NCBI GenBank assembly: GCA_005888595.1
Contig: VBAL01000114.1
Coordinates: 573 to 64,572, forward strand
Length of the DNA: 64,000 bases
Reading direction: 5' to 3'
From: Candidatus Segetimicrobium genomatis
GTDB lineage: Bacteria; Sysuimicrobiota; Sysuimicrobiia; Sysuimicrobiales; Kaftiobacteriaceae
Of the stretch, positions 1,225-44,410 are shown in pieces; position 1 is the first letter of the stretch, and every line of letters begins with the position of its first letter. Both the position numbers and the translations under genes were made by a program. A model generated the notes under the pieces. It was not told the origin of the DNA. It searched no databases and was given only the letters and a program-made list of their open reading frames with translations.

Positions 1225-1395
1225 TTCGATGGGATATTGGCACTGCGCCGCAGGGAAACCTCTCCAAAGGGCCTCTGCGGGGGAGGGAAGGGTCAAAGAA
1301 AAGGCGAAGACCAACCCGCCGAGTGATTGCGCCCATATCGCGCAAGAAAATACAGCAGCTTCAAACTCTGTCAGGCGCACAAGGGGGAGAGGCGT

Positions 1396-2541: not shown

Positions 2542-2561
2542 GGTCGACGACTCGGGAGGGA

Positions 2562-4169: not shown

Positions 4170-4177
4170 GGCTGCCC

Positions 4178-5290: not shown

Positions 5291-5470
5291 AACCGTAGGG
5301 ACGTCCGATCACCTGCCCGAGGTGGTTCCGCACGAATCACGCTGAGTTTCCGCTGGTCGGTCAAATGGCTCGCTGCCCAGGTCGGGACAAAATCTGGTGT
5401 GTTTGGCGGAATGCGGGTACGTCAAACTTGGAATCGGGAGCCCTGGACTAGATCTGATGGCTTTCTATGC

Positions 5471-5761: not shown

Positions 5762-6116
5762 CTAGGGTTCATCGGTGCCTGGCACCGATGAAGAAAAAAT
5801 AACTCGATTGGCATCAGGAGAATGACCCGGTTGGGTCATTGACGTCAACACCTACTCGTAGGGTTCATCGGTGCCTGTCACCGTCGATCCAGCGAGTCAT
5901 CGGTGTCAGGCACCGATGAAGCAAAAGGGGCTCGATTTGGCTATCGGAGAATGACCCGGCTAGGTCATTGTTGCAGGACCAGTCTGGTTGAGCCTATCCA
6001 GCGGCGCGATAACAGCGAGTGAGACTGTTCACGGTGCCAAGGCACCGATGAAGAAAAAATGGCTCGATTGGCTATAGGAGAATGACTCGATTGGGTCATT
6101 GACGCAAACACTTACT
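5762..6116. repeat. three tandem copies of a ~95-105-bp structured repeat (copy A 5762-5857, copy B 5858-~5976 with expanded stem-loop and divergent tail to ~6026, copy C ~6027-6116)
   Basis: Each unit has hairpin 1 TTCATCGGTGCC-N-GGCACCGATGAA (12-bp perfect arms; copy B arms ~20 bp with 13-nt loop), then GAAGAAAAAAT, then GGCTCGATTGG, then hairpin 2 AATGACCCGGTTGGGTCATT, then CAACACCTACTCG. Copy C overlaps the TAA stop of the TIM-barrel gene at 6112. Confidence 0.85.
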
Positions 6117-6939
6117 TGCGCACGATGCCGCGGAGATAGGCCAGGGCCCGCGGTACAGCCGTCGTCCCGGGCTCCTCGCCCTCGTACTCGACCGACACGT
6201 ACCCTTTGTATCCCGCCCCGCGCAGCAGCGCGATCGCGGCGTCGTGATCCACGCGCGCGTCGCGTCCATCGGGTAACACCTTGGTGAACTTGGCGTGGAC
6301 ATGCCACGCCAGCCGTGCGGTCCGCTCGATGCTGGCCTGGCCGTCGAGATAGTTCCCCGAATCCAGGAGCAGGCCCAGGGCCGGGCTCCCCACGGCTTCC
6401 AGGATCGCCAGTACGTCTGCCGCCGTCTGCACGAACCCGCGATGATTATGGTTTTCCATCACCAACTGCACCCCGAGCAGTTCGGCCTCCCCGCAGGCGG
6501 CGCGCAATGCCGCGATCATCGGGTGCCACCGCGCCGCGCGATCGCCTTCGGGCCATCCCGCAAAGGTCCGCAGGAAGCGTGTCCGCAACTGTTTCGAGAT
6601 GTCCATCCAGGCTACGGTCCGCAGCAGTTCCTCCTGACGTTGCGCGTCATCGGCCACTCCGAAGTCGTTCATGAAGGCGATGTTGACGATCTCCAATTTG
6701 TGGTGATCCGCCGCCTCGCGCAGCTCGGCAAGATGTTCCGGAGTCGGCGCGCCAATGTGTTTGTCCTCCAGCTCGACGGCCTTCAAACCGAGATCCTCGG
6801 CGCACAGGCGGAACCAGTCCACCAGGGTCAGCTGGCCGGCGTCAATTTCCTTTGCATACGACTCTGAACTGCAGGCGAGATCCACGGGCTCACTCCGTGC
6901 GAACGCGAGTGGGCAGGCCACCCGCGGCGATGCTGGCAT
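6112..6939 (-). CDS. sugar phosphate isomerase/epimerase (xylose-isomerase-like TIM barrel; IolE/IolI/MocC-like)
   Basis: 275-aa ORF with family motifs (VELEDKH, VMENHN, LDSGN, VHAKF). Start either ATG 6939 (50-nt overlap with upstream gene) or GTG 6885 (4 nt after the upstream stop). Confidence 0.8.
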   Translation of the reverse strand: MPASPRVACPLAFARSEPVDLACSSESYAKEIDAGQLTLVDWFRLCAEDLGLKAVELEDKHIGAPTPEHLAELREAADHHKLEIVNIAFMNDFGVADDAQRQEELLRTVAWMDISKQLRTRFLRTFAGWPEGDRAARWHPMIAALRAACGEAELLGVQLVMENHNHRGFVQTAADVLAILEAVGSPALGLLLDSGNYLDGQASIERTARLAWHVHAKFTKVLPDGRDARVDHDAAIALLRGAGYKGYVSVEYEGEEPGTTAVPRALAYLRGIVRK

Positions 6940-7873
6940 AGGCCGCGTCCAGGACGGCGAGGCTGTGGAAGGCGTCGTCCACCGTGACCGGGGGCGGAGC
7001 GACGCCCAGGCAGGCGTCGATGAAGGCGCGATCTTCGTCCACGTAGCCCCACAAACTCACCATGTCGGGGGATGAAAACTGCTGCCAGCCGGCGCGCGGA
7101 TTCTCGCGCGTCGTGTAGCGCGCGTGGTCCATATCCTCCGAGATCAGCAGCGCGTGATCGCCATAGAGCTCGACGCGCTCCTGGGGCGGCGCCCATGTGG
7201 CGTGGCCGCAGGTGCTGAAGGCCACGGGCCGGTCTCCGGCACACCGCAGCAGCAACGCGACGTCGTCGTAGTCCGGGTAGCAACTCTGCCGTCCCAGCGC
7301 CGCGACGCTCTCGATCGGTCCGATCAGCCAGGCGATCATGTCGAACAGATGCACCGCGGTGTCGTACATGAAACCGCCCGAGATGGCGACGTTGGTATAC
7401 CAGCTCGGCGTGAGCATGTCGCCGTCGTTGATCTTCACGTGGGCGGAGAACGGCGTGAAGCCGGCGTCGACGTGCTGCCGGAGGAAACGGTAGGCCGGCG
7501 CCCAGCGCCGGTTGAATCCGATCTGGTAGACGCGGCCGGCGCGGCGCACCTGGTCACGGATCTGCCGTCCTTCCTCCAACGTGGTGGCCATGGGTTTCTC
7601 AGAGAACACATGCAGCCCGCGGGTGAGGGCCTCCAGCACCACCGCGCCGTGATAGACGTTGGGCAGCGTCACAAACACCGCGTCGATCCCCAACGCGGCC
7701 AGAGCGGCCAGATCCCGGCACGGCTGCGCGCCGACCGATGCTGCTGCGGTCGTCGCCGCCTCGGCCACGGCGTCGGCGACGCCCACGAGCTCCACCCGAT
7801 GGTCCTGCGACAGGGCCTGGAGATGCCGCCGGCCCATCGTCCCGGCTCCGATCAGGCCCGCTCTCACGCCCAT
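6890..7873 (-). CDS. Gfo/Idh/MocA family NAD(P)-dependent oxidoreductase
   Basis: ATG 7873-7871 (MGVRAGLIGAGTMGRRHLQ, Rossmann GxGxxG). EKP motif (FSEKPMA). ~10-nt overlap with Zn-ADH stop. ORF track start 8071 is an unsupported N-extension. Paralogue of 26443..27447. Confidence 0.85.
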   Translation of the reverse strand: MGVRAGLIGAGTMGRRHLQALSQDHRVELVGVADAVAEAATTAAASVGAQPCRDLAALAALGIDAVFVTLPNVYHGAVVLEALTRGLHVFSEKPMATTLEEGRQIRDQVRRAGRVYQIGFNRRWAPAYRFLRQHVDAGFTPFSAHVKINDGDMLTPSWYTNVAISGGFMYDTAVHLFDMIAWLIGPIESVAALGRQSCYPDYDDVALLLRCAGDRPVAFSTCGHATWAPPQERVELYGDHALLISEDMDHARYTTRENPRAGWQQFSSPDMVSLWGYVDEDRAFIDACLGVAPPPVTVDDAFHSLAVLDAAYASIAAGGLPTRVRTE

Positions 7874-9027
7874 GGGTCGATGACGACCTTCATCGAGTCG
7901 GGCGCGATGGACTTCCGGACGGCGGCGTCCACGTCGCCGAGGCGGTAGCGGTGCGACACGAACTCGCGTACCGGGTAGTGCTGCATGTACCGCACCAGCT
8001 GGCGCATGCTCGGTCCATACGCGGCGGCCTCTTCGCCGCCGACGCCGATGATCCGCACGCTCTTCGAGCACAAATGCCGGTGCGGGTTGATCTGCACCGG
8101 GCCCAGGTCAGAGAAGTTGCCGGCCTCGACCAGCATGCCGCCCAGGCGGAGCATTTCGATCGCTTCGGGAATGACCTGCGGCACGCCCGCGCATTCGACG
8201 ACCACATCCGCGCCGCGGCCGTGGGTCAGGTCGCGGATCGCCTGGAGGCGCTCCGCCGGCGCGGTCGTCGAGGCGTCGATGGCGGCGTCGGCGCCGAGCC
8301 GCTGCGCCATGGCGAGCCGGTACGCGGAGAGATCGACCGCCACGATCGTGCCGGCGCCGAGCATGCGGGCTTTCATCAGGAAGCACATGCCCAGTGATCC
8401 GACGCCAAGCACCACGACGGTGTCGTCGAACCGGAACGCCTCGTTGGGAACGGCGGAAAACTGTTTCGCCCGATCCAATCCCACCGCGACGGCCATGACC
8501 TCCGTCAGGACGGCCACTTCGTCCGGGAGGTCGTCGGGCACGCGCACCAGGAAGCTGCCGGGCACCACGTACAGGTATTCCGACCAGCCGCCGAAGAGGT
8601 GCGGCGGCGCGGCCGCAGTCATGTTGTTCCCGTAATCCACCATGCGTTCGCAAAAGTAGTAGGGAAAGTCGTGCCGGCAGTAATAACACTCGCCGCAGAT
8701 GACGTTGGCTCCCACGACCACCCGGTCACCCACGCGCAGCGGGACGCCCTCGAAATCGGTATACGCCCGCTCGCCCCCGATGGCGGCGACCGTCCCCACG
8801 TTCTCGTGCCCCTGAATGATCGGGAAGGGAATCTCCTTGGGCGCACCCGTCCCGGCGTATTGGGTGGTGTACCCCTGATAGGTGTGCTTGTCGGTTCCGC
8901 AGATTCCGGAGAGACGCATCCGGACCAGGGCGCACCCCGGCGCCGGATCCGGCAGCGGGTACTCGCGGATCTCATACCGCCCGGGTGCGACCAGCGTCGC
9001 CGCCCGCGCGTGTGCTGCCCCCATCAT
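7864..9027 (-). CDS. zinc-dependent alcohol/polyol dehydrogenase (MDR family, sorbitol/threonine-dehydrogenase-like)
   Basis: Catalytic Zn ligands (CGTDKH, GHE), structural Zn Cys cluster CGECYYC...C, NAD Rossmann GVGSLG. Confidence 0.85.
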   Translation of the reverse strand: MMGAAHARAATLVAPGRYEIREYPLPDPAPGCALVRMRLSGICGTDKHTYQGYTTQYAGTGAPKEIPFPIIQGHENVGTVAAIGGERAYTDFEGVPLRVGDRVVVGANVICGECYYCRHDFPYYFCERMVDYGNNMTAAAPPHLFGGWSEYLYVVPGSFLVRVPDDLPDEVAVLTEVMAVAVGLDRAKQFSAVPNEAFRFDDTVVVLGVGSLGMCFLMKARMLGAGTIVAVDLSAYRLAMAQRLGADAAIDASTTAPAERLQAIRDLTHGRGADVVVECAGVPQVIPEAIEMLRLGGMLVEAGNFSDLGPVQINPHRHLCSKSVRIIGVGGEEAAAYGPSMRQLVRYMQHYPVREFVSHRYRLGDVDAAVRKSIAPDSMKVVIDPWA

Positions 9028-9069
9028 GCGCTCCTCCCGCGTCCCGAACGTGCCGCCATTCGTCGAGCG

Positions 9070-10182
9070 CTACCCGAAGATCCAGTCCTGCAGTTCGACG
9101 CCCATCCCCGGCGCCTGCGGGAGCCGCACCATCCCGTCCGCGATGGCCAGCGGCTCCCGCAGCGTCTGCTGATACGTCGACGATGGAAACGCCGGCGGGT
9201 CATGCGGGAACTCGAAGAACGTCGTGTTCGAGATCGAGGCGGCGAGGTGGAGATTCGCCACCATCCCCAATGGATCGCCCCAGGTGTGCGGTGTGAGCAG
9301 GACTCCTGCGGCGTGGGCCATCGTGGCCAGCGCTTTCGTGCGCAGCAATCCCTCACACAGCGTCACGTCCGGCTGCAGAATATCGTAGCAACCGTCGAGC
9401 AGCAGCCGCTGCAGCTCGTCGAACCGCTGGTTGACCTCCCCGCCGGCGATGGCCACCGGCGAGGCCGCATGGAGCCGCTGGAGTTCCGCGTAGGCGTGGC
9501 GCGGCAGCGGCTCTTCCAGCCAGCCGACGCCGTAATCAGCCAGCGCCCGTGCGGTCCCCAGCGCCCGGTGATAGGTCCAGTGCGGCCCCGGAAGGGGCGC
9601 GTCGGCGGTGTCGGTCTGATTGGCGTCCACCATGATCGCCATCTGGTCGCCCACCGCCTTGCGCACGGCTGCCACCTGCGCAACGTCTTCGGCCAGGGTC
9701 TCGTTGTGAATGCGGAGCTTGATGGCGCGGAAGCCCTGGTCGCGCAGCCGCCGGGCGTCGTCGGCCCGCTGGGCCGGGGTGCGATTCTGCCCTGTGGACG
9801 CATAGACCGGCACCGCATCGCTGACGTTCCCCAGCAGCTTATACACCGGCAGCCCGGCGATCTTCCCCAGGATATCCCACAGCGCCAGTTCCACGAACCA
9901 GACCGCAGTGCCGAAATAGGGCCAGAGGTACCGCAGCGTGCCGGTGTGCTTTTCGATTCGCAGCGGATCTTCACCGGTCAGGTACGTCGCGATGCGTGCC
10001 ACGGCCTGCTCTTCGGCACCATAGAACTCGTGGCCGGCGATGCCGTAGACACCGGCGTCGGTGTCAATCCGAACGTAAGCCACCCGGATCTGCGTCTCCA
10101 CCCGTCCCGGCGCCCACGCGGGATAGAAGGGGGCCGGCAGCGGGATGTCGACCTGGCGGGTCCGGATGCGTGTGATCTGCAT
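9070..10182 (-). CDS. enolase-superfamily enzyme (mandelate racemase / muconate lactonizing enzyme family; probable sugar-acid dehydratase)
   Basis: 370 aa. MR/MLE N-terminal capping domain and barrel with metal-ligand pattern (KLRIH, VDANQ, EEP). Operon context with sugar transporters. Confidence 0.75.
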   Translation of the reverse strand: MQITRIRTRQVDIPLPAPFYPAWAPGRVETQIRVAYVRIDTDAGVYGIAGHEFYGAEEQAVARIATYLTGEDPLRIEKHTGTLRYLWPYFGTAVWFVELALWDILGKIAGLPVYKLLGNVSDAVPVYASTGQNRTPAQRADDARRLRDQGFRAIKLRIHNETLAEDVAQVAAVRKAVGDQMAIMVDANQTDTADAPLPGPHWTYHRALGTARALADYGVGWLEEPLPRHAYAELQRLHAASPVAIAGGEVNQRFDELQRLLLDGCYDILQPDVTLCEGLLRTKALATMAHAAGVLLTPHTWGDPLGMVANLHLAASISNTTFFEFPHDPPAFPSSTYQQTLREPLAIADGMVRLPQAPGMGVELQDWIFG

Positions 10183-10233
10183 GCACGTCTCCGAGAGGGA
10201 GCCGGGAGGTGGCGCCGCCTCCCGGCCGCGACC

Positions 10234-11511
10234 TCATTTCATATAGCCGATGTCCGTCAACGCGGTCACCGCCGATGCGATGGCGTCCTTGTCCGACGCA
10301 CCCTGCACGGCCTTGGCAAACATGTTGGGGATCACATAGGTCTGATACGCTTTCTCGGCCAGGGCGCTGGGCGGCGCGGGATAGGCCACCAGGTGCGCGT
10401 TCCGCATGAACCCCACCAGCAGCCGCAGGTTCGGATCCGGGGCGTAGGGCGGGTTCTGGTCGAAGTGGGGCAGCACCGGCATGTCGTAGCCGCTGCCCAG
10501 CGTCAGCGCGGTCTTCTGACTGGCCTCGGTGAACATGGATCGCAGGAACTGTTTGGCCAGATCGATGTTGGGGCTGAACTTGAACACGCCCCAGCCGTGG
10601 ATGTCGGCGTAGAAGAAGCGGCCCTTCGGTCCCGACGGCGCCAGGGTGTGCCGCACCGACGGGGCGAACGGCATCTTCTCCCGGTGGGCCCGCAGGTAGA
10701 TGCTGGGCGCGTTGATGGTGTACGACCCGCGGCCGGACAGCATGTGCTTGTTGTTGCCGGAATCGTCCCAGGACAGCACGGTGGCGTCCATCTGGGAGAA
10801 GAGCTTGCGGACGTAGCTCAGCGCGGCGCGCGTCTGGGGCGAGTCCAGCGTGAGCTTGGCCTTCGCGTCGGCCACGGAGGCGCCGAACGACCACAGCAAG
10901 GGAAAGAGAATGGAGTTGGCATCTTCACACTGGCTGATCGGCAGCCCCACCGGGTGCCCCGCCTTCTTGAGTTTCCCGGCGGCGCGCAGCAAGTCGTCCC
11001 AGGTGGCCGGCGGCTGTTCGCCCACCTGGCCGAAGTAGTCGGCGCGGTACACGCCCAGCGTCCCGTTGCCGATCCAGGGCAACGCCAGCCAGTGGCCGTC
11101 CACGTACCCGGAGTCCTTCGCCACCTGATAGAAATTCCCGAACTGCTTGGAGATGTCGGCGACCACGTCGTCCAACGGGACGAGGTAGTCCTTGTGAATC
11201 GTGGGCAGGTTGTCTTGCAAGTCGATGATGTCGTGTCCTGATCGAGCCTGCTCTTCGGCGGTGAGCTTCGCCGCGACCTCGGGCTGGTCGATAAAATCTC
11301 CGGCAAACGCGGCGCTGTGCTGCGCGGCGAAGTCATTCCCGATCTTGGCGATGGCCTTGTCGCTGTCTTCGTTGAACGCGGAATGTCCCAGCAGCCGGAG
11401 CGTGGTCGACGGTCCCGCCGCGACCCGGTGAGGCCAGCGCAGCGTCCCGGCGGCCACCGCCAGTCCGGCCCCCCCTGCGGCCTTGAGAAACCCCCTGCGG
11501 GTAATCTTCAT
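10234..11511 (-). CDS. carbohydrate ABC transporter substrate-binding protein (CUT1, family 1) with TAT signal
   Basis: ATG 11511 preceded by GGAGGGGTGGGA RBS. MKITRRGFLKAAGGAGLAVAAG twin-arginine signal. Extracellular solute-binding family-1 fold. Confidence 0.8.
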   Translation of the reverse strand: MKITRRGFLKAAGGAGLAVAAGTLRWPHRVAAGPSTTLRLLGHSAFNEDSDKAIAKIGNDFAAQHSAAFAGDFIDQPEVAAKLTAEEQARSGHDIIDLQDNLPTIHKDYLVPLDDVVADISKQFGNFYQVAKDSGYVDGHWLALPWIGNGTLGVYRADYFGQVGEQPPATWDDLLRAAGKLKKAGHPVGLPISQCEDANSILFPLLWSFGASVADAKAKLTLDSPQTRAALSYVRKLFSQMDATVLSWDDSGNNKHMLSGRGSYTINAPSIYLRAHREKMPFAPSVRHTLAPSGPKGRFFYADIHGWGVFKFSPNIDLAKQFLRSMFTEASQKTALTLGSGYDMPVLPHFDQNPPYAPDPNLRLLVGFMRNAHLVAYPAPPSALAEKAYQTYVIPNMFAKAVQGASDKDAIASAVTALTDIGYMK

Positions 11512-11585
11512 TCCCACCCCTCCATCGTCAGTCTGATGTGCGTTCCGGTCCCGCCCGCGCACGGCGCTTCGCGCCGCTCACCTCC

Positions 11586-12428
11586 TCATCCTCTGACGGC
11601 GCCGGCGGTGAGGCCGGCCACGTAGTGATCCAAGAAGAGCGAGAACAGCACGACCACGGGCAGCGAAGCCACCAGCGCGCCGCCCATCAACGATCCCCAG
11701 TAGAAGAAGTCCCCGCGGATCAGATCGACGACGACGCCGGTGGTCACGGTCTTGAGGTCGGTGGTGGAGATGAACGTCAGCGAGTAGATGAACTCGCTGT
11801 AGGCCAGCGTGAACCCGAAGAGCGCGGCGGTGATGATCCCCGGCCGCGCCAGGGGCAGCACCACGTGCCGCAATGCCCCCGCGCGGGTGCACCCGTCGAC
11901 GAGCGCGCTCTCCTCCACGTCCCGCGGGATCGTGGTGAAGTACGCGGTGAGCATCCAGGTGGCGAACGGCACCATGAACGCCGGATAGGTGACGATCAGG
12001 GACCACAGCGTGTTGGACAGGTGGAATAGGGCCATCAAACGCGCCAGCGGCAGGAAGAGCAGCGTGGTCGGCACCAGGTACACGATGAAGACGAAGGTCG
12101 TCGTGGCCTCGGCCAGCGGGAACCGCAGGCGCGCCAGGGCGTACGCCGCCAGCACGGCCAGCACCACGGAGACGACCGTTGTGGTCGCCGCGACCACGGT
12201 TGAATTGCGCAGCCACAGCGGGAAGGCCGTGTGCGTGAACAGGAAGTGGTAATGCTCCCAGGTGATGCCGGCGCGGACCAGGAAGGGATTCTGCGCCAGA
12301 TCGTAGAGTTCGACGTCTTGCTTCAGCGACGCCACAAGCATCCAGATGAACGGGAAGACGGCGAAGATCACAAACGGCGCCGCCGTGAGGTAGGCGATCG
12401 CGACCCGCCGCCGCGATGACCTCACCAT
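11586..12428 (-). CDS. carbohydrate ABC transporter permease (MalG-like)
   Basis: 6 TM helices. EAA loop DGCTRAGALRHVVLPLARPG. 7-nt overlap with upstream permease. Confidence 0.85.
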   Translation of the reverse strand: MVRSSRRRVAIAYLTAAPFVIFAVFPFIWMLVASLKQDVELYDLAQNPFLVRAGITWEHYHFLFTHTAFPLWLRNSTVVAATTTVVSVVLAVLAAYALARLRFPLAEATTTFVFIVYLVPTTLLFLPLARLMALFHLSNTLWSLIVTYPAFMVPFATWMLTAYFTTIPRDVEESALVDGCTRAGALRHVVLPLARPGIITAALFGFTLAYSEFIYSLTFISTTDLKTVTTGVVVDLIRGDFFYWGSLMGGALVASLPVVVLFSLFLDHYVAGLTAGAVRG

Positions 12429-13345
12429 TGCCAGACTCTCCGCATCAACCGCACCTGCACGTACGTCGAGATGGCCAGGATCGGAAAGAGGTAGAGTGAG
12501 ATGGCCGCCGCATTGCCCAGGTCGCCGGTCGCCAGCCCCAGCTTGAACGCCAGTGTGGCCAGGATCTGAGTGGTATTCTGCGGGCCACCCTTCGTCAGGA
12601 CGAAGACCGTGGCGAAGTCACTGCTGGTCATCACGACCGAGAACAGCAGCACGGTGGCCAGCACCGGCCGCAGCAGGGGCAGCGTAATGTGCCGGAAACG
12701 GACGATGGGTCCGGCCCCGTCCACAGTGCCCGCCTCGTACAGCTCCTGCGGAATGGTGACCAGGCCGGCCAGGAAGTTGATCCCGAAAAACGGCAGGCCC
12801 GACCACACGTTCACGAGCACCACGGCGAGGCGGGCCAGGCGCGGGGTTCCCAGCCAGGCAATGGGTTCCGCGATCGCTCCCAGGTGCATCAACACCCAGT
12901 TGATGACGCTGTAGGTGGAGTCGAACATCCAGGTCCAGGCCAGCATGGCCAGCGACGTGGGCACGACCCACGGGATCAGCACCGCGCCGCGAATCCACCG
13001 CATCCCCGGCGCCCGCTGCGCCAGCACCAGCGCCAGGACCAGCCCCAGCACCAGTTTGGCGGCAACCGCGCCGAGCGTGTACCAGATGGTGTTGGACAGC
13101 GTCAGCGTGAAGATCGCCGTGCGGAGGAGGCGGACGAAATTCTGCAGGCCCACGAAGTGCGCCGGCCCGCTGACCTGCGCGTCCGTCATGCTGAGGAAGA
13201 AGGCGTAGCCCAGCGGGTACACTGCCAGCACCAGCAGCAGCAACAGCGTGGGCAGCAGGAAACTCCACGCCGTCACGGTCTCCGGGCGGAGACGGACGCC
13301 GTACGCGGTGGTCCTCTGGTGCAGAATCTCTTCCCTGGAGCTCAT
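12422..13345 (-). CDS. carbohydrate ABC transporter permease (MalF-like)
   Basis: 6 TM helices. EAA loop EAGTVDGAGPIVRFRHITLPLLRP. Confidence 0.85.
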   Translation of the reverse strand: MSSREEILHQRTTAYGVRLRPETVTAWSFLLPTLLLLLVLAVYPLGYAFFLSMTDAQVSGPAHFVGLQNFVRLLRTAIFTLTLSNTIWYTLGAVAAKLVLGLVLALVLAQRAPGMRWIRGAVLIPWVVPTSLAMLAWTWMFDSTYSVINWVLMHLGAIAEPIAWLGTPRLARLAVVLVNVWSGLPFFGINFLAGLVTIPQELYEAGTVDGAGPIVRFRHITLPLLRPVLATVLLFSVVMTSSDFATVFVLTKGGPQNTTQILATLAFKLGLATGDLGNAAAISLYLFPILAISTYVQVRLMRRVWQW

Positions 13346-13362
13346 TCGCTCCTTCTTCGGTC

Positions 13363-14208
13363 TTATGACGCCGCGGGCGTGCGCGAGGTCGGGGCCAGCC
13401 CCAGGGCCTGAGCCTGCTCCCGGACGATGGCGACCACACGCTCAACTTCGGCACCCAGCGTCTTTCGGCCGAGGTCCGCCGAGGCCTCACGGGGGTCGGC
13501 CTCGGGGCGAACCGTGAAATCCGGCGTGGGACGGCCGTCGAACGCCTTACCGTCGACGATCCCAAACTCCTGGTAGCGGAGCGGCACACCTTTCGGCGGC
13601 AGCGCGGCGAGGTCGACGAGGTCGGGCCTGGTCGCAAGGATGATCGAGGTCTCGATCTTCTCGGCGTGGCCGGGATCGGAGAAGGGCGGGGACGCCGGCA
13701 GAAAGGCCATCGCGAACACGACGCGTACGCGTGGCGGATCGGATTCTTCCGCGGCCAGACGCTGCAGCGTGCGCTGGTGATTGACCGCACCGTGCCCGTT
13801 GACGAGCACAACGAGGCGGTACCCGTCCAACTTCAACAGCCGGATGAGCTCGCGGACGGTGACGGCGAACGTGCCTTCCTCAAAGTATAGGCTCTTCACG
13901 GGATTGTCGGGGAAGTCCATCCCGATGATGCGTTCCGTTCCTTGGAATCCCAAGACGGCCGCGCTCTGCGGTCCGCGGTCCACCGGTCGCACGGTCTCCG
14001 AGCCGATGTAGTAGGTGGGCAGGACGACGCCGCCCACCTGCTGCGCCGCATCGACGGCGACCATATGCGCATGCAGGCCGTCCATCCCCATGGGAAGATG
14101 GGGGCCGTGCCACTCGATCGGGCCGATCGGGATGAAGACCAGCGGGAGGCGCGAGCGCTCGCGCACGATCTCCGGCGGCCGCATCAGCTCGTACTGGACG
14201 GTGCGCAT
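13363..14208 (-). CDS. creatininase-family amidohydrolase (creatinine amidohydrolase / MftE-like)
   Basis: Characteristic creatininase motifs LPLVFIPIGPIEWHGPHLPMGMD and VNGHG...; 281 aa. GGGAGGGAAC RBS. Stop of upstream ATPase directly abuts the start. Confidence 0.75.
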   Translation of the reverse strand: MRTVQYELMRPPEIVRERSRLPLVFIPIGPIEWHGPHLPMGMDGLHAHMVAVDAAQQVGGVVLPTYYIGSETVRPVDRGPQSAAVLGFQGTERIIGMDFPDNPVKSLYFEEGTFAVTVRELIRLLKLDGYRLVVLVNGHGAVNHQRTLQRLAAEESDPPRVRVVFAMAFLPASPPFSDPGHAEKIETSIILATRPDLVDLAALPPKGVPLRYQEFGIVDGKAFDGRPTPDFTVRPEADPREASADLGRKTLGAEVERVVAIVREQAQALGLAPTSRTPAAS

Positions 14209-14982
14209 CTAGTTCCCTCCCGCTCGGTCTGCAGGCTCAGTGTCTCCCTTGACGATCAGCGATTCGATGACACTCGGATCGGCGGTGCCTTTCAAGAACT
14301 CTCCGACCTTCCGGCCGTGGTACAACACCACGATGACGTCGGCGACGGGGTACACATGGGACAGGTTGTGCGTGATGAAGATGGTGGAGAGCCCCCGCGC
14401 GGTGACATCGCGGATATAGTCCAGGACCTTGCGGGCCTCCTTGATGGAGAGCTGGGATGTGGGTTCGTCGAGGATCATCACCTTGGCGCCGAAGTACATC
14501 GCTCGCGCGATCGAGATGGCCTGCCGTTCCCCTCCAGACAAGAGACGGATTTCTTTTTCGGCCGTGGTCAGGCTGGTAATGCCGATCTCCCGCAGGTAGC
14601 TCTCGGCCGTCCGGTGCATCTTTGCGGTGTCGAGCACCGACACCGGGCCGACGCGCCGCGCGGGCTCGGCTCCCAGGAAAAAATTTCTGGCGATGCTCAT
14701 ACTCTCCACTAATGCCAGGTCCTGGTAGACGGTCTCAATCCCCAGCCTGCGGGCCTGAGTCGGCGAACCCAGGTGGACCCGGCGGTGTTCAAACCAGATT
14801 TCGCCGCTGTCAGGCTGATGCACGCCGGCGAGGATTTTGATGAGCGTCGACTTTCCCGCTCCGTTGTCCCCCACCAGCGCCAGCGTTTGACCACGCGGGA
14901 GGGCGATGCTGACGTGGTGGAGCGCCTGCAAACGACCGAAGCGTTTCGAAATATCGCGCGCCTCGAGCAGCGGGGTTGCCAT
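14209..14982 (-). CDS. sugar ABC transporter ATP-binding protein, single NBD (CUT2, FrcA-like)
   Basis: ATG 14982-14980 (MATPLLEARDISKRFG), ATGA overlap with permease stop. Walker A GDNGAGKST, signature LSGGERQAISIARAM, Walker B ILDEPTS. ~257 aa, no second NBD. Confidence 0.85.
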   Translation of the reverse strand: MATPLLEARDISKRFGRLQALHHVSIALPRGQTLALVGDNGAGKSTLIKILAGVHQPDSGEIWFEHRRVHLGSPTQARRLGIETVYQDLALVESMSIARNFFLGAEPARRVGPVSVLDTAKMHRTAESYLREIGITSLTTAEKEIRLLSGGERQAISIARAMYFGAKVMILDEPTSQLSIKEARKVLDYIRDVTARGLSTIFITHNLSHVYPVADVIVVLYHGRKVGEFLKGTADPSVIESLIVKGDTEPADRAGGN

Positions 14983-15935
14983 CAGCTTCTCCAGGTGAAG
15001 ATCAGCCGGTCCAGCTGTGTGTTGATGACGACGATGACGATGATCACGCACCCGACGAAGGCCGTGTACCAAAACGAGGGCGCCCCGGCGGCGACGAGTC
15101 CGACCTCGATGGAGGCGAGGGCGATGGTCCCCAAGATCATCCCCAAGACCGTTCCTATCCCTCCGAACAGAGAGACGCCGCCGACGACGGCAGACGCGAT
15201 GGCCTCAAGTTCCAACCCGCTGCGCACGGGCGAGATCGACATCATGCGGCCGAGCTGGAGCGCGCCGGCCAGGCCCGCCAGGAGGCCACAGATGGTGAAG
15301 TTGATCAACTTCACTCTATCGACCGGCACCCCGATGGCCCGCGCCGCCTCGGTCTTTCCGCCGGTTCCGTAGACCCAGTTGCCGTAGCGCGTTTTCTCCA
15401 GCATGATCCAGAAGATCACGGCGGCAACAGCCCACCAGGCCGCCGACACATGCAGTGAACTCGCCGGGCTCGGCGTGCTGTTTCCCAAGACGTTGAGCAC
15501 CGGCAAGGGAGCGATGAAGCTGATGGGCCAGCCCCCGGTGACCCACAGGGCCATCCCGTTCCAAAAGAACAGCGTCCCCAGCGTGGTGATGAATGATGGG
15601 ATCCGGGTCCGCACTGTGATGAGGCCGTTGAGTAATCCGATCAGGCCGGCCATGCCCAGCACCGTGATGACCGAGAGCGCCGCCGGCACCGCCGCCTTCA
15701 AGAGCATGCCGAGCACAATCGCCGAGAACGTAAAATTCGAGCCCACCGATAGGTCGAACTCCCCCGAGACCATCAGGACGCCTTCCCCGATGGTGATCGT
15801 GCCAATCTCTGCCGCGATGGTCAGGATTCCCCCGAACGTCGCCCAGGTGAGGAACGCGCGGTTCAGATAGGTGAACACACTGTACGTGACCGCGATGGCA
15901 ATCACGGCCCCGAGTTCCCGCCGCCGATGGAACAT
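14982..15935 (-). CDS. sugar ABC transporter permease (CUT2, RbsC/FrcC-like)
   Basis: ATG 15935-15933 (MFHRRRELGAVIAIAV). ~9 TM helices. Branched-chain/ribose permease fold. ORF track start 16022 is an N-extension. Confidence 0.8.
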   Translation of the reverse strand: MFHRRRELGAVIAIAVTYSVFTYLNRAFLTWATFGGILTIAAEIGTITIGEGVLMVSGEFDLSVGSNFTFSAIVLGMLLKAAVPAALSVITVLGMAGLIGLLNGLITVRTRIPSFITTLGTLFFWNGMALWVTGGWPISFIAPLPVLNVLGNSTPSPASSLHVSAAWWAVAAVIFWIMLEKTRYGNWVYGTGGKTEAARAIGVPVDRVKLINFTICGLLAGLAGALQLGRMMSISPVRSGLELEAIASAVVGGVSLFGGIGTVLGMILGTIALASIEVGLVAAGAPSFWYTAFVGCVIIVIVVINTQLDRLIFTWRS

Positions 15936-16051
15936 GACTCGTCCGAGCAGTGGGGTGAGAGCGGATGGGAAGGAGCCCGCCAGAGGCGAACTCCTCCCCA
16001 CCCGTGGCGAGTCAGCCTTCATCGGTGCGACGGCGCACGACAGCCCATTGC

Positions 16052-17062
16052 CTATCGGAACCCCTGCTTGGCGAGCTTCGTGATGAAATCGACGTTCTTC
16101 GCGTCGACCGTCCCCCCGGCGCCGATGTGGTCGTTGGGATCGAGGGCGTAGTTGTTGTAGAGATAGAGCAGGGCGATGGGGAGGAAGCCGAAACCAAGCT
16201 GCTGGAGGTCGATGGCCGAGACCACGCGTCCTCGCTTGATCGCATCGAGGGTGACGTCGTCGATATCGGACCCCACCACCCGGATCTTGTCGTTGGATGC
16301 CTTCATCTCGTCGAGGAGTTTGACCGCCGCGTGGGTCCCCAGCGCGCCGAGGGTGAAGATCGCTTTGGTGTTGGGATTCTTCTGCAGATAGGCGCGCATG
16401 ATCTCGACCGCCTTAGTGGTCTCCTCGCCAATGACGAGTTTGTCCACCTTGGGGTCCAGAGACGTGATCCCCTCGATGTAGCCCGAGGTCTTGATCTCCA
16501 GGACGCGGTTTCCCGGCTCATGGTTGACGACTACAACGTTCGCGCCCTTCTCCAGGAGCGGGACCAGCTTCGCGGATGCCCGCGCCGCGGCGATCCGCAC
16601 GTCGACGCCCACGAACGCGATCGGGGTGCCGTTCGCGAACGTGGCCGCGAAGTCCTTAGGCGGAGGTGTATCCGAGAAGATCGTGGGGATGCCGGCCTGG
16701 GCGGCACGCTGTAAGGGCCCTCGAATCACTGCGGGGTCGGCGCTTGTCGTGACGATCCCCGCGGCTTTTGCGCTGATGGCCGCGTTGACCATGTCCGCCT
16801 GCTTTGGCGGACTGTACCCCGAGGGTCCTTCGAAGACCGCCTTGACGCCCAAGGCCTTGCCTGCCGCCTGGACCCCGCGCTGGACGACGGCCCAGTAGGG
16901 ATCGCCGGGTCCGACGTGCGCCACCCAGTAATAGGTCCCGGATGAAGCGGACTGCGCGAAGGCCTTGGCGATGTGCCGCGTGCCGGTGGACAGCACGCTG
17001 GCCGCCACCGTGGCCCCGACCGTTGCCTTCAGAAGATCACGACGACTGAGCTTCTCGTGCAT
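16052..17062 (-). CDS. periplasmic sugar-binding protein (RbsB/MocB-like, CUT2) with TAT signal
   Basis: MHEKLSRRDLLKATVGATVAASVL twin-arginine signal. Peripla_BP_4-like alternating beta-alpha pattern. Adjacent CUT2 permease and ATPase. Confidence 0.8.
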   Translation of the reverse strand: MHEKLSRRDLLKATVGATVAASVLSTGTRHIAKAFAQSASSGTYYWVAHVGPGDPYWAVVQRGVQAAGKALGVKAVFEGPSGYSPPKQADMVNAAISAKAAGIVTTSADPAVIRGPLQRAAQAGIPTIFSDTPPPKDFAATFANGTPIAFVGVDVRIAAARASAKLVPLLEKGANVVVVNHEPGNRVLEIKTSGYIEGITSLDPKVDKLVIGEETTKAVEIMRAYLQKNPNTKAIFTLGALGTHAAVKLLDEMKASNDKIRVVGSDIDDVTLDAIKRGRVVSAIDLQQLGFGFLPIALLYLYNNYALDPNDHIGAGGTVDAKNVDFITKLAKQGFR

Positions 17063-17203
17063 GCTCGTTGCCCCCCTTCGACGGCGATGATGAAACCGTT
17101 CTGGTCTCGCGAATCCTGGAGTCTCCCACCTCCCCGCGCGGCGCCTGGCTTCGTCTATTATAAGGAAACGCCCGAGTGACCCAGGCCGGAGCCGAGCCTT
17201 TCG

Positions 17204-18370
17204 TTAGCCCGGCTTCATCGGTGTGACCAATCCCTCCACCGGGACCCGCCGTCCCTCGCGGGCGGCCCGGTCCAGCGCGTCGCAGACCACCGCACACCGG
17301 TATCCATCCTCGAAACTGGCGCCGTCCGGCTCCACGGTGCTCTGCCCGCCCACTGCCAATAAGAAGTGGTGCAGTTGGTGCACAAACGTGTGCTCCCATC
17401 CCAGGATGTGTCCCGGCGGCCACCAGGTCCCACCGTACGGGTGGTGCGCCTCCGTCACCAGGACCGTGCGGAACCCATTGGCCCCGTCGTCGCGGACAAA
17501 CAGCTCCAGCTCGTTCAACCGCTCCAGGTTGAACGCCAGCGAGCCGCCGGAGCCGTTCACTTCGAAGCTGAGGAAATTCTTGCGCCCCGGACAGAAGCTG
17601 CTGGCCTCCAGCGTACCGACCGCGCCGGTGGTGAACTCCAGGACGGCCTCGATGGCGTCCTCGACATCGACCGCACCCTCACCGCCGTCACGGCGCGGAC
17701 GGCGGTCGATAAAGATGCGGGCGGTGGCGGAGACCGCCGAGACCTCGCCGACGAGGAACCGCGCCAGGTCAAGCGCGTGGGCGGCCAGGTCGCCGATGAC
17801 CCCGCTACCCGCCCGGGCTTTGTCGTGTCGCCAGCTGTAGGGAGCGCTGGGATCGACCATCGAGTCGTCACAGTACCGGGTCCGGAAATGATAGATCCGG
17901 CCGAGCCGTCCTTCGCGGATGAGTTGCCTGGCCAGCCGGACTGCGGGAACGAACCGGTAGTTGTATCCGGTCATGTGCACGATGCGCGCCGTCGCCGCGG
18001 CGTCGCGCATCTGCGCCGCCTCCGTCGACGTCCGCGCCAGCGGCTTCTCACACAACACATGCAGCCCGCGCGCGGCGCCCGCGACAGACGCCTCGGCATG
18101 CACGTCGTTGGGACCGGCGTTGATCAGGACCTGCACCCGGCGGTCGTCAATCAGCCCCCGCCAGTCGGGGTAGGCGGCCTGCGCGCCGTAGCGCTGAGCG
18201 GCCCGCTCCACCCGATCTGCCGATCGTCCCGCGACCGCGACCAACAGCGGCCGCGCCGGGAGCGGCCAGAAGATCGTCGAGACCCGCTGGATGGCCAGGA
18301 GGTGAGCCTTGGCGACCCCTTCGTACCCGAGTACCCCGATGCCGACCTGCCGGACCGAACCGTCGGTCAC
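17204..18370 (-). CDS. Gfo/Idh/MocA family oxidoreductase (inositol-dehydrogenase-like)
   Basis: GTG 18370-18368 overlapping aminotransferase stop (GTGA). VGIGVLGYEG Rossmann start, EKP motif (LCEKPLA), C-terminal alpha/beta domain. ORF track start 18544 is an N-extension. Confidence 0.8.
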   Translation of the reverse strand: MTDGSVRQVGIGVLGYEGVAKAHLLAIQRVSTIFWPLPARPLLVAVAGRSADRVERAAQRYGAQAAYPDWRGLIDDRRVQVLINAGPNDVHAEASVAGAARGLHVLCEKPLARTSTEAAQMRDAAATARIVHMTGYNYRFVPAVRLARQLIREGRLGRIYHFRTRYCDDSMVDPSAPYSWRHDKARAGSGVIGDLAAHALDLARFLVGEVSAVSATARIFIDRRPRRDGGEGAVDVEDAIEAVLEFTTGAVGTLEASSFCPGRKNFLSFEVNGSGGSLAFNLERLNELELFVRDDGANGFRTVLVTEAHHPYGGTWWPPGHILGWEHTFVHQLHHFLLAVGGQSTVEPDGASFEDGYRCAVVCDALDRAAREGRRVPVEGLVTPMKPG

Positions 18371-19638
18371 AGCACGGCCTGGGCCACTTTGTGGATGCCG
18401 GCAATGACGTCGCTGACATCCTGGTCGGCAAACAAGGGGTGCACATCGAGATGCACGGCCCGCTGCAGGATGGCATCGGTGCGTGGGAATTGCCCCTTCA
18501 CCAGGGTGGCGCTGCCTTTGTAGTGCGGGCACTCCCAGGAGCACTTCCGTGTGGACAGCAGGCGGCGGTTGATGATCTGGTCAAAGTGGTTGTAGACATG
18601 CTGGCCGCTCCACCAGGGCACGCTCGCCGGCAGGTTCTCCGCGGCCAGGGCCCGGGCGAACCGGTCCGCCTGCGCCGCCGTCGGCACGAAGAAGATGACC
18701 GTGGCGCCCGTTTCGCCGTCCTCATCGTAGAGCGTTCGAAAGGTCAGTCCGGGGATGTCCCGTATGCCGTCCCTGATCCGGCGGGCGTTGGCGCGCATCC
18801 GTTCGATGATCCAGTCCATCTTTTTTAGTTGCGCCAAGCCGACCGCGGCGGTGAGCTCGCCCATGCGAAAGTTGATGCCGATGATGAGCGGGCTGTCCCC
18901 GGCGATCAGCAGATCGAGTTCCTCCATCCGCACCGAGCCCTGATCGTGGAACCGCACGGCGCGTTCGAACAGGACGGGGTCGCTGGAGGTGAGCATGCCT
19001 CCCTCGCCGGTGGTGATGGTCTTGTGATATTGCAAACTGAACGCGCCGAACTGGCCCCAGGTACCCAGGCGCCGCCCCCGGTACCGGCCGCCCAGGGCCT
19101 GGGCCGTGTCCTCGACGACGGACAAGTGATGCGCCCGCGCGGTCTCGAGGATAGGCGCCAGGTTTGCGGGGGCGCCGCGCATGTGCACCGGGATGACCGC
19201 GCGCGTGGAGGGGGTAATCGCCGCGGCGAGCGCCGCCGCGTCCATGTTGAGCGATTCGTCGATATCGACGAACAGCGGGACGGCCCCCAGGATCACCACC
19301 GCATTGATCGTCGCGATCCAGGTGTACGTGGGCACCGCTACCTCGTCGCCCGGCCCGATGCCCAGCGCCGCCAGTGCGGTGATCAAGGCGCCCGTCCCCG
19401 ACGTGACCGCCAGGGCGTGACGCGCGCCCATGGCCTGGGCGAAGGCCTTCTCTAATGACGCGGCGCGATGGAGCGGCCGGGGACCATAGTGCCGGAAGAG
19501 GGACTGGCTCTCGATGACCTCGAGCACCGCCGCCTTTTCCTCCTTACCGATCAGCAATCCGCCCGGCCACCCGGGCAGCAACGGGGTGGTGCGCACGGGT
19601 GTGCCGCCGTCGATTGCCAACCGATCGGTGATGGCCAT
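18367..19638 (-). CDS. DegT/DnrJ/EryC1/StrS-family PLP-dependent aminotransferase (sugar/inosose aminotransferase-like)
   Basis: ATG 19638-19636 (MAITDRLAIDGGTPVR) with GGAGGAG RBS. Family motifs AVTSGTGAL and FSLQYHKTITTGEGG (PLP-lysine in SxxK context). ORF track start 19788 is an N-extension. Confidence 0.85.
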   Translation of the reverse strand: MAITDRLAIDGGTPVRTTPLLPGWPGGLLIGKEEKAAVLEVIESQSLFRHYGPRPLHRAASLEKAFAQAMGARHALAVTSGTGALITALAALGIGPGDEVAVPTYTWIATINAVVILGAVPLFVDIDESLNMDAAALAAAITPSTRAVIPVHMRGAPANLAPILETARAHHLSVVEDTAQALGGRYRGRRLGTWGQFGAFSLQYHKTITTGEGGMLTSSDPVLFERAVRFHDQGSVRMEELDLLIAGDSPLIIGINFRMGELTAAVGLAQLKKMDWIIERMRANARRIRDGIRDIPGLTFRTLYDEDGETGATVIFFVPTAAQADRFARALAAENLPASVPWWSGQHVYNHFDQIINRRLLSTRKCSWECPHYKGSATLVKGQFPRTDAILQRAVHLDVHPLFADQDVSDVIAGIHKVAQAVL

Positions 19639-21347: not shown

Positions 21348-21353
21348 AAGACC

Positions 21354-22403: not shown

Positions 22404-22404
22404 C

Positions 22405-26371: not shown

Positions 26372-26442
26372 GCCAGTGCCGTACCAACTTGATTTCCGCA
26401 TCTGCTTTTCTTAGTATCCATGGAATCGCTCGGTAGCCACGC

Positions 26443-27447: not shown

Positions 27448-27602
27448 GTGGGTGTGAATTCTTCGACGTCGGACGGGCGGCAACATTTCGTCTTCCCCAT
27501 TTCGCACACTCGGCCAGACGGAGACGGGGACAGGAGGGAGCCCCGTCGGCGCGAACTAGCAGAGTGTCCCCCTGAGAACAGGTACTGTGAGGAGGGAGAG
27601 GA

Positions 27603-41268: not shown

Positions 41269-41269
41269 C

Positions 41270-41362: not shown

Positions 41363-41364
41363 TG

Positions 41365-44335: not shown

Positions 44336-44410
44336 CTATCACGATGGTAATCCGGCGCCGGGGGTGGGGGCGATCCCCTCCCGGCGCGGTGGGTCCCGGG
44401 GACGGCTGAC

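Follow-up and report, generated by a model that had tools for sequence, protein, structure and literature searches.

An importer-linked DegT aminotransferase operon of Candidatus Segetimicrobium genomatis as a candidate amine-utilisation locus

The DegT-family enzymes are treated as biosynthetic markers. Pairs of Gfo/Idh/MocA (Gfo) oxidoreductases and DegT-family enzymes, such as NtdC/NtdA and WbpB/WbpE, interconvert an alcohol, a ketone and an amine at one carbon. For inositol, a Thermotoga pathway was reportedly described by Rodionova and co-workers in 2013, with a phosphorylated or phosphodiester inositol input implied. IolG and the DegT-family MosB interconvert inositol, inosose and scyllo-inosamine (PMC6668481). 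In addition, the route from 5-keto-L-gluconate through tagaturonate and altronate to 2-keto-3-deoxygluconate (KDG) is established (PMC12632266). Here, a DegT-containing operon at positions 6112-19638 (minus strand) of a contig of Candidatus Segetimicrobium genomatis (VBAL01000114.1) was analysed; the window is the whole analysed stretch of 64,000 nucleotides, to which all positions refer. The operon couples the aminotransferase to Gfo oxidoreductases and sugar-type importers. No known pathway shares its gene neighbourhood, and the initial annotation of this DNA was likewise unable to match the gene order to a described locus (iol, moc, ntd/kanosamine or aminoglycoside clusters).

The locus is very probably a real and conserved regulon for the catabolic utilisation of an amine. 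The catabolic, deaminating direction is strongly indicated by the importers, by the LacI repressor of the relatives, and by the lack of a glycosyltransferase, a nucleotidyltransferase and an NtdA/NtdC orthologue. Four ATP-binding cassette (ABC) importers were found in and around the cluster, and no glycosyltransferase, nucleotidyltransferase, kinase or amidinotransferase was present within it. The importer-coupled, deaminating cluster proposed in the initial annotation was upheld by these importers, by the LacI genes of the relatives and by the lack of biosynthetic companions. Moreover, orthology to an NtdA/NtdC-type biosynthetic set, which that annotation had named as the opposing outcome, was not found, with 95 bits for NtdA and no biosynthetic threshold reached. 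The core of LacI, DegT and Gfo with a creatininase-fold hydrolase is conserved, uncharacterised and widespread in uncultured soil phyla.

Gene organisation and the predicted enzymes

The operon consists of 13 intact, closely packed genes in one direction, as judged from the open reading frame (ORF) listing, codon-position GC content and Pfam scans, and its coding share is 97.5%. The families first annotated here were recovered at their positions, all co-directional on the minus strand, in agreement across Pfam, start codons with ribosome-binding sites, and junctions. The original count of eleven genes was too low, and the families in that annotation's own title already total 13. Read from the DegT side, the junctions measured -4 (GTGA), 141, 29, -1 (TGATG), 0 (TAGATG) and 17 nt, and the remaining ones down to TIM1 measured -7 (ATGGTGA), 74, 51, 42, -10 (or -4, GTGA) and 4 nt. 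The genes are as follows:

18367-19638, minus strand: DegT/DnrJ/EryC1/StrS-family pyridoxal phosphate (PLP) aminotransferase, 423 aa (PF01041)
17204-18370, minus strand: Gfo388, Gfo/Idh/MocA oxidoreductase, 388 aa (Pfam)
16052-17062, minus strand: ribose-type (CUT2) binding protein with a Tat signal (Peripla_BP_4, 131 bits)
14982-16022, minus strand: ribose-type (CUT2) permease, alternative start at 15935 (BPD_transp_2, 125 bits)
14209-14982, minus strand: CUT2 single-domain ABC ATPase, 257 aa (ABC_tran)
13363-14208, minus strand: creatininase-fold metallohydrolase (PF02633, 108 bits)
12422-13345, minus strand: maltose-type (CUT1) ABC permease 1 (BPD_transp_1)
11586-12428, minus strand: maltose-type (CUT1) ABC permease 2 (BPD_transp_1), overlapping permease 1 by ATGGTGA
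10234-11511, minus strand: maltose-type (CUT1) extracellular binding protein with a Tat signal (SBP_bac_8 and SBP_bac_1)
9070-10182, minus strand: enolase-superfamily enzyme of the mandelate-racemase type (MR_MLE_C, 205 bits; MR_MLE_N, 46 bits)
7864-9027, minus strand: Zn-dependent medium-chain dehydrogenase (Zn-ADH) of the polyol/ketocyclitol type (ADH_N and ADH_zinc_N)
6890-7873, minus strand: Gfo327, Gfo/Idh/MocA oxidoreductase, 327 aa (Pfam)
6112-6885, minus strand: TIM1, xylose-isomerase-like TIM barrel and final gene of the operon (AP_endonuc_2, 107 bits)

The membership of DegT in its family is clear, with 297 bits against a PF01041 cut-off of 19.8, and a GGAGGAG ribosome-binding site lies 5' of its ATG at 19638. 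The PLP lysine is present in the motif FSLQYHKTITTGEGG, and this lysine, in ...YHKTITTGEGG, aligns with the lysine motif of KdnA. KdnA (5k8b) was also the closest solved relative, with 238 bits over the full length; it acts on a free sugar, not on a nucleotide sugar. The scores of DegT were 160-184 bits against nucleotide-sugar and inosose aminotransferases and 95 bits against the NtdA structures. Specific enzyme functions were judged throughout by the curated orthologue (equivalog) cut-offs of NCBIfam, all of which were missed by DegT. In a tblastn search of 72,556 plasmids, no member of the DegT subfamily was found and all matches were below 45% identity, with 37-43% for the best ones on rhizobial plasmids; the search gave neither a handle in a cultured organism nor a relationship to mosB. 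The subfamily comprises more than 120 protein clusters of at least 63% identity. Most of its homologues (P0007-P0107) are labelled '8-amino-3,8-dideoxy-alpha-D-manno-octulosonate (Kdo8N) transaminase' by JGI. This label was probably mis-transferred as a systematic annotation error, because the context of import and catabolism is conserved without KdnB or Kdo genes.

The start of Gfo388 overlaps the stop of DegT (GTGA). Gfo388 scored 329 bits on the NCBIfam levoglucosan dehydrogenase (LGDH) model, which has a cut-off of 650, and its matches in the PDB were LGDH (6a3f, 305 bits), 4h3v (283 bits) and the Paracoccus scyllo-inositol/L-glucose dehydrogenase (5ya8, 188 bits). Judged by these matches, Gfo388 is a member of the levoglucosan-dehydrogenase / Paracoccus scyllo-inositol-dehydrogenase subfamily (PMC5969746). 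The gap of 141 nt that separates Gfo388 from the CUT2 binding-protein gene contains a GC-rich hairpin with a T-rich tail at 17170-17186 (minus strand). It may be an internal attenuator that splits DegT-Gfo388 from the rest of the operon. In the promoter and terminator scan, no signal exceeded that of shuffled sequence, and terminator-like matches were not enriched. Furthermore, no obvious operator was seen in the 465-bp divergent intergenic region, and an Rfam scan of the whole window gave no riboswitch or RNA.

For the enolase-family protein, the galactonate dehydratase model gave 146 bits (cut-off 311) and the talarate/galactarate dehydratase model 135 bits, also below its cut-off; the PDB match was 4ggb with 136 bits. 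The motifs MVDAN, EEP, GGE, QPD and PHTW were seen, and the protein is probably an acid-sugar dehydratase. The Zn-ADH scored 180 bits on an HpnZ-type model, 144 on IolM (scyllo-inosose 3-dehydrogenase; cut-off 450) and 134 on threonine dehydrogenase, and its best PDB match was the Thermotoga structure 1vj0 (166 bits). The functions of IolM, IolN and IolO are taken here as named in NCBIfam. By these functions, the Thermotoga IolG/M/N/O route leads through a further oxidation to a diketo-inositol, whose ring is opened to 5-keto-L-gluconate by the creatininase-fold hydrolase. The best model for Gfo327 was IolG (inositol 2-dehydrogenase), with 153 bits against a cut-off of 355. TIM1 gave 34 bits on both the hydroxypyruvate isomerase and the IolO models (IolO cut-off 300), and no IolE match for it was found in NCBIfam at E<=1e-5. 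Only one TIM barrel lies inside the coordinates first annotated, where IolE/MocC-like TIM barrels had been proposed, and the IolE/MocC-like assignment did not stand.

The CUT2 binding protein scored 162.6 bits on the NCBIfam rhizopine binding-protein model, which has a cut-off of 420, and at most 47 bits on the other curated sugar binders (rhamnose, allose, autoinducer-2). The best homologue of this binding protein in a cultured organism is supplied by a plasmid of Thermus thermophilus (pTHTHE1601), in an operon that is a complete iolA-D-E-C-J-G-B set. The binding protein, permease and ATPase of the CUT2 importer were 34, 35 and 48% identical to the trio inside this operon. The ligand of the CUT2 importer is, on these matches, moderately indicated to be of the cyclitol type. 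The pointer is confined to the ANGP1 lineage, since elsewhere DegT-Gfo pairs with CUT1, PhnS-like or SBP_bac_5 importers. For the CUT1 binding protein, the sole PDB relative was MalE3 (61 bits), and none of the three binding proteins searched against PDB sequences had a close relative solved with its ligand. No cognate ATPase gene was found for the CUT1 importer; CUT1 importers are usually without an ATPase gene of their own beside them.

The ATG of the creatininase-family gene directly abuts the stop of the CUT2 ATPase gene (0 nt). Its product scored 66 bits on the creatininase model (TIGR04448; cut-off 235), 48 on MftE and 27 on IolN (cut-off 245). It retains the metal-binding motifs E-x-H...D and GH, but in the alignment to 1q3k 'NGHG' ('GHGAV') stands in place of the 'NGHY' of creatininase. 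The product of 13363-14208 is, from these features, a protein of the creatininase fold and not a true creatininase. An IolN orthologue was rejected at 27 bits against 245. A true creatinine pathway, prompted by a creatinase-like gene in the related locus L038, was rejected as well for this window, on account of the deviating active-site motif and of a gene context typical of sugars or cyclitols. In L038, a creatinase/M24-like gene and a UxaA/GarD-type dehydratase fragment lie nearby (15696-15765 and 35-391).

Conservation in related loci and the flanking genes

Related loci were obtained from a scan of species-representative genomes and from contigs carrying DegT homologues at 64-83% identity, and further loci were drawn independently through homologues of the creatininase-family protein and the CUT2 binding protein. 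All proteins of the window were mapped onto them by tblastn, which gave 19 distinct DegT loci. These span ANGP1, Armatimonadota ('Ca. Fervidifonticultor'), Methylomirabilota/Rokubacteria, metagenome-assembled genomes (MAGs) of Bacillota and unclassified soil MAGs, at least six uncultured lineages in all, with a DegT identity of 64-99%. DegT and Gfo388 were adjacent in 16 of the 19 and at most 5 kb apart in one more, the exceptions being L012 and L035. DegT is directly preceded by a LacI-family gene in nine or more loci, often with a 4-nt start overlap (for example L004, L026, L029, L031 and L035-L037). Near-identical loci were found by the species-representative genome scan in soil MAGs named 'Bacillati bacterium ANGP1'. 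The gene order was kept in both L010, where DegT was 99% identical and the region 95-97% identical in nucleotides, and L006, with a nucleotide identity of about 85-86%.

The linkage was also recovered from other members of the operon. With a creatininase-family homologue as query, LacI-DegT was found within 10 kb in all three long contigs (L035-L037), and DegT, Gfo and the creatininase-family gene are contiguous in L013. The order DegT-Gfo-enolase-ZnADH-Gfo327 is contiguous in L001, an Armatimonadota genome, and in L022. The enolase-family and Zn-ADH genes had been regarded as merely added to the cluster, a view that the Armatimonadota locus contradicts, as both directly follow DegT-Gfo there. 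Gfo327 orthologues of 68-74% identity follow DegT-Gfo in L001, L004, L029, L031 and L036. The cassette of CUT2 binding protein, permease, ATPase and creatininase-family gene is kept in L038, with a binding protein of 76% identity. The L040 version of the cassette continues into two CUT1 permease genes and an enolase homologue, with identities of about 50% (49% for the binding protein). Since the same families are linked in other orders and phyla and were recovered from different query genes, the cluster is not a product of chance.

The functional locus is wider than the operon and extends over 364-27507. The flanking features are given below:

364-1728, minus strand: TIM barrel similar to CbiR, a cobamide-remodelling phosphodiesterase, domain in the C-terminal 260 aa of the ORF (CbiR model, 55 bits against 105)
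1327-5290, plus strand: fourth, PhnS-like ABC importer, with the binding protein at 1327-2541 and then permease and ATPase to 5290 (Pfam, NCBIfam)
20103-24143, plus strand: third ABC importer, divergent from DegT (Pfam; NCBIfam PRK11622 and PhnS-like models), with a PhnS/UgpB-like binding protein (20103-21347), a TOBE ATPase (21354-22403) and permeases (22387-23301 and about 23298-24143)
24146-24881, plus strand: glycerophosphodiester phosphodiesterase (GDPD), frameshift near 24400-24415 (GDPD domain; tblastn)
24878-25667, minus strand: TIM2, ketose-3-epimerase / IolO-type TIM barrel, frameshift near 25300 (tblastn frames -3 and -1)
25679-26401, minus strand: hyp240, orphan conserved protein of 240 aa (no Pfam match)
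26443-27507, minus strand: Gfo354, third Gfo/Idh/MocA enzyme and paralogue of Gfo327 (IolG model, 161 bits against 355)

The two halves of GDPD were found in frames +2 and +3 by tblastn with the L004 orthologue, and the domain is truncated in one frame. The orthologues of GDPD and TIM2 are single-frame in L010, L006 and L004, and the two frameshifts are either an assembly error or a recent pseudogenisation. The TIM2 orthologue of L004 scored 137 bits on the IolO model (cut-off 300) and 130 on the psicose 3-epimerase model, and TIM2 is kept near DegT in L004, L009, L011, L015 and L036.

The third-importer set, at 60-76% identity, adjoins DegT-Gfo-Gfo in L004 and L036. In L004, LacI-DegT-Gfo386-Gfo327 is followed by a binding protein, an ATPase, two permeases, GDPD, an inositol monophosphatase (IMPase)-family gene, a hypothetical gene and TIM2, with identities of 56-76%. 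L036 has an operon that begins with the creatininase-family gene and also contains Gfo327, the importer, GDPD and an IMPase-family phosphatase, beside LacI-DegT-Gfo. GDPD, together with the IMPase-family phosphatase of the relatives, indicates that the IolG-like enzymes are fed from a phosphodiester, for instance glycerophosphoinositol. The CbiR-like TIM barrel and the PhnS-like importer suggest a second entry route for phosphodiesters, because the pair lies beside LacI-DegT-Gfo-Gfo in L031 and L032 (with 51-66% identity for the barrel, the binding protein and the ATPase).

No Pfam match for hyp240 was found at E<=5. It carries invariant His/Cys-rich motifs, HHAHDLHIRYYY, HYEVxDEHPxHPY, CPxCGR and HEPLGLE. 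Its counterparts in L004, L036 and L006 share 63-83% identity with it, and its gene invariably neighbours TIM2 and an IolG-like Gfo. Among 1.84 billion protein clusters, 84 representatives were found. A single-sequence AlphaFold2 (AF2) model was unusable, with a predicted local distance difference test score (pLDDT) of 31, and the only fusion partners of its homologues were TPR domains. Hyp240 is probably a new metalloenzyme of the pathway.

Annotation of the rest of the window (28-64 kb) showed neither a regulator nor iol genes, and no KDG kinase or aldolase. The region 39382-49326 is an unrelated neighbour with an AllG (oxamate carbamoyltransferase subunit)-like gene, a CoA-ligase-like gene, an SBP_bac_5 peptide/opine-type importer, a cyclase and a family III CoA-transferase. 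In the relatives, paired PF12831 FAD-dependent oxidoreductases and a CUT1 importer lie divergent from LacI-DegT (L004:5735-8675, L029:5840-8752, L035:6924-9902), and arginase-family, MlrC-like and ornithine-cyclodeaminase genes recur in L001, L003, L026, L029 and L037. This set resembles opine or Amadori catabolism. In L043, two dimethylformamidase-like (DMFA2_C) genes at 3571-5414 replace the creatininase-family gene after the CUT2 cassette.

Candidate substrate and alternative pathways

The candidate substrates are an inosamine, an amino sugar or a conjugate. For the ANGP1 lineage, a cyclitol-type substrate has close to an even chance. The inosamine/rhizopine logic put forward by the initial annotation fared unevenly: the cyclitol hint was strengthened by the binding-protein scores (162.6 against at most 47 bits) and the Thermus trio, but the locus is not a moc locus. 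We tentatively favour the importer-coupled catabolism of an inosamine-type cyclitol or a close amino-polyol analogue; the complete stepwise scheme is somewhat more doubtful than that substrate class, and the assignments of the individual reactions are weak.

In the favoured scheme, the CUT2 importer would bring the compound in, and the CUT1 importer would bring in a related, possibly glycosylated, form. With a 2-oxo acid as the amino acceptor, DegT would turn it into a ketocyclitol (inosose), the reverse of the MosB/StsC reaction. A second carbonyl would be introduced by Gfo388 and/or the IolM-like Zn-ADH to give a beta-diketone, whose ring might then be opened hydrolytically by the creatininase-fold metallohydrolase to a keto-aldonic acid, as by Thermotoga IolN. 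This ring opening is favoured over a deacylase because of the L036 operon, with its IolG-like Gfo and phosphodiester importer. The TIM-barrel epimerase/isomerase and Gfo327 would epimerise and reduce the keto-aldonic acid, and the enolase-family dehydratase would form from the aldonate a 2-keto-3-deoxy acid that can enter central metabolism. Inositol set free from phosphodiesters would join this trunk by way of the flanking modules, namely the Ugp-like importer with GDPD, and Gfo354-hyp240-TIM2.

Several observations weigh against this scheme. All proteins of the locus stayed below the curated orthologue cut-offs, and their specific functions are therefore inferred. KdnA targets the terminal CH2-NH2/CHO of a sugar acid and not a ring carbon, and levoglucosan dehydrogenase, the top match of Gfo388, acts on C3 of glucopyranose. 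The inositol-type CUT2 importer accompanies DegT in the ANGP1 lineage only. With an AF2 model of its binding protein (pLDDT 88.8), a Foldseek search of the PDB returned generic ribose-type binders only; the Caulobacter inositol binder ranked 50th, and the model did not discriminate between substrates. The higher scores on creatininase and MftE than on IolN make the IolN-like C-C hydrolase role an analogy only, and three of the four characterised activities of the creatininase fold are amide hydrolyses (creatininase, ArfB, MftE). The creatininase-family gene often lies beside MlrC, arginase-family and amidohydrolase genes in relatives, and the dimethylformamidase-like genes of L043 hint at an amidase step. 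In addition, no KDG kinase or aldolase was found downstream within the window.

The LGDH match of Gfo388 (329 and 305 bits) and the action of LGDH on C3 speak for another substrate. An amino sugar or amino-glycoside (a 3-amino- or 2-amino-deoxyhexose such as kanosamine or glucosamine, or a glucosamine-inositol pseudo-disaccharide from mycothiol or from glycosylphosphatidylinositol (GPI) or glycosylinositol phosphorylceramide (GIPC) cores) is an unlikely but serious candidate. DegT would convert the ring amine to a keto sugar, Gfo388 would reduce this or else oxidise C3, the TIM barrels would eliminate and hydrate in the manner of the 3-keto-glycoside and levoglucosan pathways, and any released inositol or sugar acid would be handled by Gfo327, the Zn-ADH and the enolase-family enzyme. 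Where C3 oxidation is coupled to transamination, DegT and Gfo are repeatedly found as partners (NtdC/NtdA, WbpB/WbpE), the wider locus holds three xylose-isomerase-like TIM barrels, and a maltose-type (CUT1) oligosaccharide importer lies inside the operon; GDPD, the IolG-like Gfo and the IMPase-family phosphatase of the relatives would suit a glucosamine-inositol-phosphate-glycerol. However, the importer directly after DegT-Gfo388 is of the inositol/rhizopine type, not of the glucose or ribose type, NtdA is distant (95 bits), and the LGDH cut-off was missed by half. No TIM barrel reached the LgdB-like or keto-glycoside lyase models, and the locus lacks a kinase or deaminase for hexosamines. 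Improbable is a substrate in the form of an N-substituted conjugate (N-acyl or N-formyl amine, opine-like or Amadori-type compound). Its amine would first be unmasked by the creatininase-fold enzyme as an amidase, without any part in ring opening, and DegT as transaminase and Gfo388 as reductase would follow. Such a scheme agrees with the amide-splitting activity of most characterised creatininase-fold enzymes (creatininase, ArfB, MftE), with the gene abutting the importer cassette, with the dimethylformamidase-like genes in its position in L043, and with the MlrC, arginase-family, amidohydrolase, paired FAD oxidoreductase and ornithine cyclodeaminase genes of relatives. But these accessory nitrogen-releasing hydrolases of the relatives all lie outside this window, an amide is not expected in the L036 operon with its phosphodiester importer, GDPD and phosphatase, and the enolase-family dehydratase requires a carboxylate intermediate, which the scheme does not supply.

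The remaining explanations leave the amine, the import or the linkage aside. A Thermotoga-type pathway for inositol or glycerophosphoinositol, free of amine and with DegT-Gfo388 in an accessory or other role (such as the handling of a keto intermediate or of another co-regulated nutrient), is quite improbable. It would account for the co-occurrence of Gfo, Zn-ADH, creatininase fold and TIM epimerase, all four of the unusual Thermotoga families, and for the adjoining Ugp-like importer and GDPD with the IMPase-family phosphatase in relatives. DegT-Gfo388 is, however, the most conserved element, is LacI-controlled and is often found without Zn-ADH, TIM or GDPD; a lysine-intact PLP aminotransferase has no role in a nitrogen-free pathway, and the scores on the Iol models are all far below their cut-offs. 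A biosynthetic cluster for an aminocyclitol or amino sugar (MosB/StsC- or NtdA/NtdC-like), with the transporters as unrelated neighbours, is very improbable, although the DegT family is overwhelmingly biosynthetic and DegT with Gfo makes amino sugars and inosamines (PMC6668481). Here, genes of binding-protein-dependent importers alternate with enzyme genes in translational coupling, a LacI repressor is co-transcribed in relatives and a probable acid-sugar dehydratase is present, whereas a glycosyltransferase, nucleotidyltransferase, kinase, amidinotransferase and exporter are lacking and no curated biosynthetic orthologue threshold was reached. Equally remote is a chance juxtaposition of independent transport and sugar-acid operons. 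Many ABC importers do occur in the window, and a weak terminator-like hairpin stands between Gfo388 and the CUT2 binding-protein gene, but hairpin matches were not above the shuffled expectation, and the same families are linked across orders and phyla, with the linkage recovered from another member.

A more novel reading is that of a widespread, undescribed pathway of soil bacteria for aminocyclitols or glucosamine-inositol conjugates (mycothiol, or GPI/GIPC head-group remnants as phosphodiesters). It would combine a reversed, LacI-controlled DegT, a creatininase-fold beta-diketone C-C hydrolase outside Thermotogae and hyp240 as a new step, and it is, on present evidence, an unlikely proposal. 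A conserved, repressor-controlled and importer-linked catabolic DegT subfamily would correct the habit of annotating such genes as biosynthetic. Should the substrate prove to be an inosamine or an aminoglycoside-derived cyclitol, the mineralisation of aminocyclitols would gain its first defined route. If true, the Thermotoga-type ring hydrolysis would be extended to the mesophilic soil phyla ANGP1, Rokubacteria/Methylomirabilota and Armatimonadota, which to our knowledge are described as being without cultured members. It would further bear on the turnover of organic nitrogen and phosphorus in soil and on the fate of aminoglycoside and rhizopine-like signals, and would matter for rhizopine-based synthetic signalling, where such bacteria would be unexpected degraders. 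The genes are few and their products soluble, so direct testing by heterologous expression is feasible.

Comparison with known systems

The rhizopine system of Sinorhizobium (moc, MosB) shares with the locus the rhizopine-type binding model and the DegT/Gfo chemistry on inosose and inosamine. The binding protein here reached 162.6 of the 420 bits required, and the DegT-family enzyme of rhizobia is biosynthetic. No MocA, MocC, MocDEF or MocR, and no Rieske, ferredoxin or MocR-type genes, were found within the window. The classical iol operon (Thermus thermophilus pTHTHE1601, Bacillus subtilis) has IolG-like dehydrogenases in common with the locus and, in the case of Thermus, a homologous CUT2 trio. 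IolE, IolD, IolB, IolC, IolJ and IolA were not found within the window, and the IolG scores were 153 and 161 against 355.

The kanosamine genes NtdABC share the pairing of Gfo and DegT; the present locus differs in its distance from NtdA (95 bits), its importers and its catabolic direction, and no NtdB-type HAD phosphatase is present in the operon. In the levoglucosan / 3-keto-glycoside pathways (LgdA/B/C), an LGDH-like Gfo likewise occurs with xylose-isomerase-like TIM barrels. Gfo388 shares a structural subfamily with 6a3f and 5ya8, though it remains below the LGDH cut-off (329 against 650). The Kdo8N system (KdnA/KdnB) supplies the closest solved relative of DegT, KdnA, with the same PLP-lysine motif, and no KdnB Fe-ADH or Kdo genes were found within the window.

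Searches of the accessible literature gave no DegT-based catabolic or aminocyclitol degradation pathway, and no creatininase-family cluster or glycerophosphoinositol operon of relevance. In the lower pathways for L-gluconate and L-galactonate (Paracoccus lgn, Luteolibacter lgu, Escherichia coli lgo), a keto-aldonate is epimerised, reduced and dehydrated to KDG (PMC12632266). The present locus likewise has a Zn-ADH and a probable acid-sugar dehydratase, the latter of the enolase family and not of the UxaA or IlvD type.

The inositol pathway of Thermotoga maritima (IolG/M/N/O with the InoEFGK importer) shows the same four enzyme families beside a binding-protein importer. Compared with it, the locus adds DegT, a levoglucosan-dehydrogenase-type Gfo, an enolase-family dehydratase and an orphan protein, and the importer families differ. 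The scores were 144 against 450 for IolM, 27 against 245 for IolN, and 34 (TIM1) and 137 (TIM2 orthologue) against 300 for IolO, below the level of orthology. Because all four families of the Thermotoga route are present at scores below the cut-offs, the likeness between the two systems lies in pathway logic rather than in orthology.

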